Positions 16,113 through 16,646 of a DNA stretch of 64,000 bases are shown here, piece after piece. The stretch spans positions 75,516,001-75,580,000 of the forward strand of contig OX597830.1 in NCBI GenBank assembly GCA_951406725.2, read 5' to 3'. The notes beneath the pieces are model-generated. The model saw only the letters and a list, made by a program, of their open reading frames with translations. It was not told where the DNA came from and did no database searches. The stretch is from Octopus vulgaris (lineage: Eukaryota). Position numbers and translations under genes: made by a program. Within the stretch, counting starts at the first letter, position 1, and each line of letters starts with the position of its first letter.

Positions 16113-16646
16113 GCAATAATAATTCTCTAAAAGGGATATAGACAGTAACTGCTCGATAACATAAGGGACTAAAGCCATCTGAATATGGCTAGGGACAGGG
16201 CAGGTGGTGGGGGTGTTACTGTTGCATTTAGCCCCAGGCGAACATCGACGTCACCAGAAAGGCTCGACACCGTCACGGTGCCCTTATCGAGCAGTTACTG
16301 TCTATATCCCTTTTAGAGAATTATTATTGCTTTCGAACAGATTTTCGAAATCAGCAAATGTATTTTGCTTGAAAATCTATATAAGAAAATCCTGCAGAGT
16401 GAGAATTCGTCGAGGAAGCGGAGGCCTACCACACGCCGATGATAGGCAATACACCTTGAAACCATGGTCCGTGTGTGGTTTCCGCTTCATCGGGGAATTA
16501 CACTCCTTTGCAGGTTAAGGGCACCGTGACGGTGTCGAGCCTTTCTGGTGACGTCGATGTTCGCCTGGGGCTAAATGCAACAGTAACACCCCCACCACCC
16601 TGCCCTGTCCCTAGCCATATTCAGATGGCTTTAGTCCCTTATGTTA
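16113..16646 (+). mobile_element. Young hammerhead-bearing element with A-B-A'-C-B' inverted/permuted structure inside (TA)n
   Basis: A 16113-16159 is the reverse complement of A' 16284-16330; B 16157-16286 is the reverse complement of B' 16516-16646 (one indel); C contains a hammerhead. Confidence 0.9.
16430..16475 (+). ncRNA. Minimal type I hammerhead ribozyme (CCGAUGA variant) at the tip of a long rod
   Basis: CACACG/CGTGTG stem I, extended by GAAGCGGA/TCCGCTTC; CCGATGA 16436-16442; AGG/CCT stem II; GAAAC-CATG-GTC (palindrome ACCATGGT); predicted cleavage after C16469. Confidence 0.8.

Follow-up and report, generated by a model that had tools for sequence, protein, structure and literature searches.

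Organization of the element

We analyzed a 64,000-nt stretch of the Octopus vulgaris genome (contig OX597830.1, positions 75,516,001 to 75,580,000), referred to here as the window, and within it an element with (TA)n on both flanks (15988-16112 and 16645-16696), as reported in a preliminary description of this DNA (Table 1). The layout A-B-A'-C-B' given in that description is real: A (16112-16159) is complementary to A' (16284-16331) at 48 of 48 positions and B (16156-16286) to B' (16516-16647) at 131 of 132, with one gap, which is the single indel described between the arms. When reverse complemented, the head reads B' and then A' across ...TTATGTTA|TCGAGCAG, i.e., the end of the unit at 16287-16646 joined to its own start, also as described. 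The inverted arm is 176 nt long (unit positions 230-360 plus 1-45), and the forward arm is about 363 nt long (unit 358-360 plus 1-360). We refer to their outer ends, at unit positions 45 and 360, as the T and N ends, respectively. The TTA microhomology that had been pointed out is found at both junctions, including the inversion point, and short overlaps at inversion points are common across the family described below. What the preliminary description overlooked is that A is a fixed Penelope "tail" and that the layout is a known integration signature of Penelope-type elements (PLEs).

The element contains only short ORFs, of at most 50 aa, and no ORF with reverse transcriptase (RT) and GIY-YIG domains was found in it or in the 64-kb window, as an autonomous PLE would have. 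Judged on its ORFs, it fits a non-LTR retrozyme, a class defined by no protein coding and no LTR, PBS, or PPT. The sequence noted earlier upstream of the rod, TATATAAG, is present at 16378-16385 but varies between subfamilies and is at most a putative promoter. The window copy is a young member of a known element class.

Table 1 Features of the element, with positions in the window
Feature	Position	Strand	Evidence
Left (TA)n target microsatellite	15988..16112	.	Sequence
Tail (unit positions 1-45), closing the inverted arm on its outer side at fixed end T	16112..16156	-	754 exact tail+(TA)n ends
Remainder of the inverted arm (B), unit positions 230-360, 5'-truncated at 230; one-base gap relative to B'	16157..16286	-	
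Inversion point, where the 5'-truncated ends of both arms share 3 nt (TTA) of microhomology	16284..16286	.	Sequence
Forward arm, a complete 360-nt unit with N as its fixed end	16287..16646	+	526 exact no-tail+(TA)n ends
3' strand GTTACTG (within the tail) of the conserved 7-bp helix	16294..16300	+	Compensatory changes
TATATAAG, TATA-like, putative promoter only	16378..16385	+	Sequence; not conserved across subfamilies
Long rod with the hammerhead at its tip	16392..16513	+	z = -6.75; compensatory pairs across subfamilies
Type I hammerhead	16430..16475	+	Covariation; predicted cut after C16469 (C17)
5' strand CAGTAAC of the junction-spanning helix	16581..16587	+	
Short hairpin directly before the N end	16613..16630	+	Conserved in related families
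Right (TA)n target microsatellite	16645..16696	.	Sequence

Hammerhead and conserved RNA structures

The rod tipped by a hammerhead, placed earlier at about 16392-16513, was borne out by folding: it reached -58.1 kcal/mol (z = -6.75), none of 200 shuffles folded equally well, and the hammerhead was located at 16430-16475. The entire 360-nt unit had a z of -6.04. Stem I of the hammerhead pairs 16430-35 with 16470-75, and stem III consists of 2 bp with a palindromic CAUG loop, which would permit dimeric cleavage. The core is CCGAUGA (U4C), compared with the canonical CUGANGA. The young subfamily is characterized by this U4C core together with a basal U.U pair in stem II; older cores are of the U3 type, and the related 353-nt family has the canonical core. 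According to PMC3088659, U4C is far slower in vitro but is enough for a viroid, and a U10.1-U11.1 pair is tolerated.

An Rfam scan of positions 14000-19000 yielded no hammerhead family, only chance matches of the miRNA type. Despite this, covariation supports one type I hammerhead per unit, as is found in retrozymes. Among 16 variants from these families, covariation is seen in stems I and III as well as in the 3-8 pair, which is U-A in 7, U-G in 5, and C-G in 4 of them. Overall, 95% of the cells were paired, compared with at most 58% in slid controls and with 0 of 500 shuffles reaching this level, figures that are to be read as support and not as a p-value because the sequences are related.

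A 7-bp helix spans the unit junction, with unit positions 295-301 pairing with positions 8-14 of the next unit and enclosing the N end. It shows two compensatory double changes, with 282, 68, and 6 perfectly paired instances (counts that include overlapping loci); the exceptions are 3 instances with a G-U pair and 3 that are mismatched. The helix is absent from the minimum free energy fold, both linear and circular. It is a candidate protein-binding element.

A family of young 360-nt repeats

A search of the genome (2.8 Gb, 227 contigs) gave at least 394 matches of the element, with 40 of 727 candidates scored. The B'-A' junction, which had been singled out for a genome-wide search for other copies, matched exactly 1349 times; it is not unique to the locus, and this recurrence makes it the native unit junction. 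Exact T ends, in which (TA)n follows unit position 45, numbered 754, an excess that is partly due to older subfamilies sharing the tail pattern, and exact N ends, in which (TA)n follows position 360, numbered 526. Reversed-pattern controls for the T, N, and junction patterns gave zero matches.

The 360-nt period recurs in dispersed arrays on many contigs, in the range of the ~170- to 400-nt tandem repeats of retrozymes, and the longest arrays have 22 full units. These results agree with the earlier claims of an end-to-start junction from a tandem or circular template and of a retrozyme-type 360-nt unit. The unit is a noncoding repeat with a covariation-supported type I hammerhead, i.e., a metazoan non-LTR retrozyme, and its family comprises hundreds of young copies.

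Related families are present in the same genome. The two ends recur in a sister family with a 360-nt unit (~76% identical, 144 motif matches) and in the 353-nt family (~60% identical, 349 matches), and a fourth unit, of 354 nt, was found at one locus. At least three further hammerhead repeat families with units of 353-360 nt were also seen (L193:1179-1531; L242:1575-1928; L131:1517-1874; L235), and a motif common to the 353- to 360-nt hammerhead families has 4208 exact matches in the genome.

Insertions with two fixed ends

To describe the insertions, we used 80 of the 81 regions of one contig (C1) that carry either end, picked on either end. Two arms lay head-to-head with their 3' ends outward in 64 of the 80, and 16 were one-armed. 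The two-armed loci thus show the inverted, 5'-truncated copy beside a (partial) tandem that is typical of endonuclease-positive (EN+) PLEs. One T and one N end were found in 63 of these 64 insertions; none had two T or two N ends, and one was eroded. The two ends are ~45 nt apart on the unit, one arm ending at ~360 and the other ~45 nt further, and the tail, at 38-45 nt close to the 30- to 40-nt one-ended tail of EN+ PLEs, occurs exactly once per insertion in 63/64. A second, nonrandom set of 32 loci, chosen for likeness or length, included 28 two-armed insertions (23 with T and N ends, 3 eroded, and 2 exceptions, L277 and L279).

At least 8 nt of TA was present on both sides of 77 of 100 two-armed insertions. 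Direct repeats of ~9-12 bp were found in 8 of the remaining 23, those with informative flanks. Both findings match the AT-rich or (TA)n target and the duplication of ~8-10 bp known from EN+ PLEs. A pile-up of arm ends at unit position 219 was rejected as an alignment artifact from the variant of the window copy at 216-218.

Both arms of an insertion derive from one template or haplotype. Among 67 insertions with enough shared sites, 55 had arms without any difference at polymorphic sites, and identical arms made up 29% of 1712 age-matched cross pairs. The lengths of the two arms correlate (rho = 0.51), and their inner ends fall within 15 nt of each other in 19/64 insertions (7.5 when permuted). 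The inner ends cluster at unit positions 180-300, on the 3' side of the rod, and at 1-60.

Penelope-type elements in the same genome

PLE copies are described as partial tandems with an inverted 5'-truncated copy and a 30- to 40-nt tail, often at one end, and their insertions as having 8- to 10-bp duplications and a (TA)n bias (PMC8557442, PMC3846280). The protein of an anole PLE (PAc), a predicted dimer, nicks and extends both strands of AT-rich DNA in vitro, and its RT uses two internal start sites that delimit the tail; uncleaved RNA is its dominant substrate, with the hammerhead (HHR) dispensable in vitro (PMC11167929).

The octopus genome has at least two abundant families that encode an RT with a C-terminal GIY-YIG domain, with RVT_1 called above and GIY-YIG below the cut-off. 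We refer to them as Neptune-like on the basis of a Zn-knuckle motif. Of 13 head-to-head copies of the second of these autonomous families, 10 were informative; 9 of the 10 lie in (TA)n with a ~42-nt tail on one side only and the other end bare, the remaining copy having two tails (L305). Both families (L293-L305 and L172-L175) are very young, high in copy number, and targeted to (TA)n, with open frames of up to 869 and 1214 aa stop-to-stop. The L293-type family has an ORF of 811 aa. No tail end of the first family (L172 type) was found among the 30 loci examined.

No sequence similarity was found between the 360-nt unit and either autonomous family, including their pLTRs, which makes the partner a candidate class and not an identified element. 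No PLE ORF was found within 1.5 kb at 30 loci chosen by the conserved motif. An ORF continuing from the tail at L141 was considered as a partner and rejected, because it encodes a LINE-type RT without GIY-YIG; at L141 (1047-3089) and L134 (~1467), a tail end is directly fused, in the same orientation, to a LINE-type RT ORF that is 5'-truncated and belongs to one family in both copies. In a single case (L195:1725-2372; L206), an arm of the 353-nt family adjoins part of an RT from the second autonomous PLE family, reflecting either a nested insertion or a template switch.

We consider it very likely that double priming by PLE-type machinery produced the footprint.

Proposed mechanism of insertion

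From the structure, the end rule, the shared haplotype, the target duplications, and the like footprint of an autonomous element, all observed here, we infer the enzyme, the cleavage, the circle, and the order of events in the model that we favor on balance: Penelope-type machinery carried out twin target-primed reverse transcription, starting at two fixed sites of one RNA that was probably a monomeric circle. Tandem copies would be transcribed, cleaved by the hammerhead, perhaps as dimers, and ligated into a 360-nt circle. An RT/GIY-YIG protein, perhaps a dimer, may then bind the structured domain around the unit junction. Staggered nicks ~10 bp apart in (TA)n would each prime one cDNA, with the N end (unit 360) as the first putative RT start site and the T end (unit 45) as the second. 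Each RT would cover from less than one lap to many laps before stopping, and the 3' ends of the cDNAs would anneal via microhomology (TTA in the window copy), followed by fill-in. For the window copy, the N cDNA would be one full lap across the cut site and the T cDNA 176 nt. Two such independent cDNAs, joined by microhomology, would fit the palindromic and the nonnested insertions alike.

Several observations count against this model: mosaics in 4 of 18 long arrays, a few units of foreign haplotype, and the lack of sequence shared with the unit in either autonomous family tested; the weakness of the U4C core in vitro as described in PMC3088659 and the preference of the anole PLE for uncleaved RNA (PMC11167929); and the breaks of the end rule at L277 and L279 together with the two-tailed autonomous copy at L305.

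Possible circular and linear templates

For the window copy by itself, a circle would suffice as template, as would about 405 nt of tandem RNA left uncleaved. Contigs from four runs, taken on a guess to be RNA, continue from 16646 into 16287, as a circle or a tandem and RNA or DNA would do equally. X1 and X5, from the same presumed-RNA runs, contain a 390-nt record of one haplotype, which would likewise look the same from a circle and a tandem.

In the multiunit insertions of C1, 165 nonmodal variants were fixed, 79 were in a single unit, 4 in all units but one, and 1 was intermediate, and the divergence was 0.11% within arrays against 1.8% between them. Each successive haplotype change is fixed throughout the two inverted arms, in all of their units, so that a bottleneck of one unit is needed each time. 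The cut site was crossed without an indel at positions 180-187 in 294 of 295 units. Given a PLE mechanism, a monomeric circle is a fairly likely template, because most arrays are of a single haplotype and crossing of the cut site leaves no scar. In situ mosaics among the long arrays (0/9 on C1, 4/9 in the second set, and 4/18 overall) keep this from being proof.

In the mosaic arrays, variants occupy subsets of the units, some of them in repeated blocks. Long arrays with locus-private variants in such blocks were seen at L267, L268, L270, and L271, with a period of 5 in L268 and an alternating pattern in L271; these variants record either turnover of the array in situ or a dimeric template. 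A few units carrying the allele of another haplotype were found at the outer end in L269, L276, and L277 and at the inner end in L057. Both of the two mosaic variants tested were private to their own locus, which indicates that arrays were also duplicated or converted in place, and this could account for part of their homogeneity and length.

The mosaics lend weight to a rival reading, which we consider rather unlikely, namely, PLE-type double priming on an uncleaved linear tandem transcript, with unequal exchange or conversion later lengthening and homogenizing the long arrays where they stand, and with circles absent or by-products. The locus-private blocks in 4/18 long arrays would be expected from it, as would a weak U4C core (PMC3088659) and the use of unprocessed RNA seen with PAc (PMC11167929), and some 405 nt of transcript would be enough for the window copy. 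However, the haplotype steps fixed in both arms demand one-unit bottlenecks, and no mosaic pattern was common to two loci in the two tested. Moreover, array length does not grow with age, as measured by identity (rho = 0.12, p = 0.35), and 14 of the 18 long arrays have fixed or single variants only.

A hammerhead-cleaved linear monomer, on which the RT jumps end to end for extra laps, would also give a single-unit bottleneck, and five inner ends at unit positions 185-188, a weak pile-up by the cut site between 183 and 184, suit it. This reading is nevertheless improbable, since nearly all crossings are free of indels and the inner ends are spread over both clusters without a pile at 184.

The preliminary description had proposed that a single junction-crossing cDNA folded back, and self-priming of this kind has been suggested for PLE palindromes (PMC3846280). 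Five of the 64 insertions are near-perfect palindromes offset by the tail alone, and fold-back could hold for a minority of insertions. In 28/64, however, neither arm is a subpath of the other (with a 5-nt margin), and the same is true of the window copy, in which simple fold-back cannot have occurred because neither arm contains the other. As it also leaves the two fixed outer ends unexplained, we regard fold-back as a very improbable explanation overall and as refuted for the window copy. The fusions at L141 and L134 could point instead to mobilization by a (TA)n-targeting LINE RT, but the two fixed non-poly(A) ends, the tail, and the near-universal inversion match the local GIY-YIG element, and later insertion into the TA flank is a simple explanation of the fusions, which leaves a LINE with hardly any likelihood. 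Finally, local DNA template switching at the TTA microhomologies of both junctions, the alternative offered earlier in the form of a unique rearrangement, is refuted by the 1349 exact copies of the junction and by outer ends that recur hundreds of times.

Comparison with known systems

The element class and the PLE layout themselves are already known. Non-LTR retrozymes, their circles, and PLEs as their candidate helpers have been published (PMC7229834, PMC7761336), and a pLTR ancestry of retrozymes has been argued (bioRxiv 10.64898/2026.07.22.740005). Like the non-LTR retrozymes of metazoans (Cervera & de la Pena 2020, PMC7229834; Li et al., bioRxiv 10.64898/2026.07.22.740005), the octopus unit is a noncoding tandem repeat in the 170- to 400-nt range with one type I hammerhead, and it shares with them a self-paired RNA, dispersed arrays, and co-occurrence with PLEs. 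It differs from them in the head-to-head pairs, two fixed ends, tail, and ~10-bp duplications of its insertions, in the covarying element kept across related families, and in the U4C core, and its circle is a putative one. In the literature searched, mostly open-access main text, we found no report of inverted arms, tails, target duplications, strict end pairing, or such a covarying element for retrozymes, and PMC7761336 notes the lack of a conserved motif that would point to a retrozyme helper.

With EN+ PLEs, the family has in common the inverted arm, one-ended tail, (TA)n or AT-rich target, 8- to 10-bp duplications, and a hammerhead upstream of two fixed ends (PMC8557442 and its Fig. 2; PMC3846280; PAc, PMC11167929). 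In contrast to them, the octopus repeat has no ORF, is a self-contained 360-nt unit in arrays of up to 22 full units, and showed no pLTR homology to either of the two autonomous families compared with it. Nonautonomous PLE derivatives with multicopy head-to-tail insertions also occur among the Chlamys elements, MRC1 being an example, but the MRC1 clade is green-algal and reported to be without canonical hammerheads, and MRC1-type elements match their autonomous partners at the 3' end (PMC8557442).

The footprint also recalls the twin priming of L1, from which it can be told apart. In L1, two cDNAs start from two nicks and are joined by microhomology, giving a 5' inversion; the internal position at which the second primer anneals varies, and there is hardly any overlap between the arms. 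In the octopus family, by contrast, both start sites are fixed, and the arms copy the same sequence, even for several laps.

Which enzyme mobilizes animal retrozymes and whether their circles serve as templates are described as open (PMC7229834, PMC7761336), as is the origin of the tandem, inverted, and tail structures of PLEs (PMC8557442, PMC11167929). Hundreds of young insertions bear on both questions. The family offers a near-strict one-tail rule common to an autonomous element, arms of a single haplotype, and a covarying RNA around the first start, and its footprint makes the circle-template model testable in the existing in vitro PLE system. A more specific version, which we put forward tentatively as a little short of an even chance, is rolling-circle twin priming, in which a Penelope RT dimer would load one ribozyme-made 360-nt circle, with one active site for each start and strand, and produce two head-to-head concatemers. 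If true, it would tie the circles of animal retrozymes to PLE machinery by their footprint and provide a general rule for the inverted and tail structures of PLEs.

Other features of the window

A long imperfect hairpin lies at 18469-18600 of the window, with no copy among the fetched loci. At ~27086-27141 (minus strand), a 57-nt piece of another repeat family resembles the conserved element upstream of the N end. A second, unrelated rod with a hammerhead-like tip is located at 15548-15756 (plus strand), with (TA)n on both sides and a canonical CUGACGA core at 15617. Copies of it with ~81% identity were found in L114, L116, L088, and L090, and it is probably another PLE-end or retrozyme remnant.
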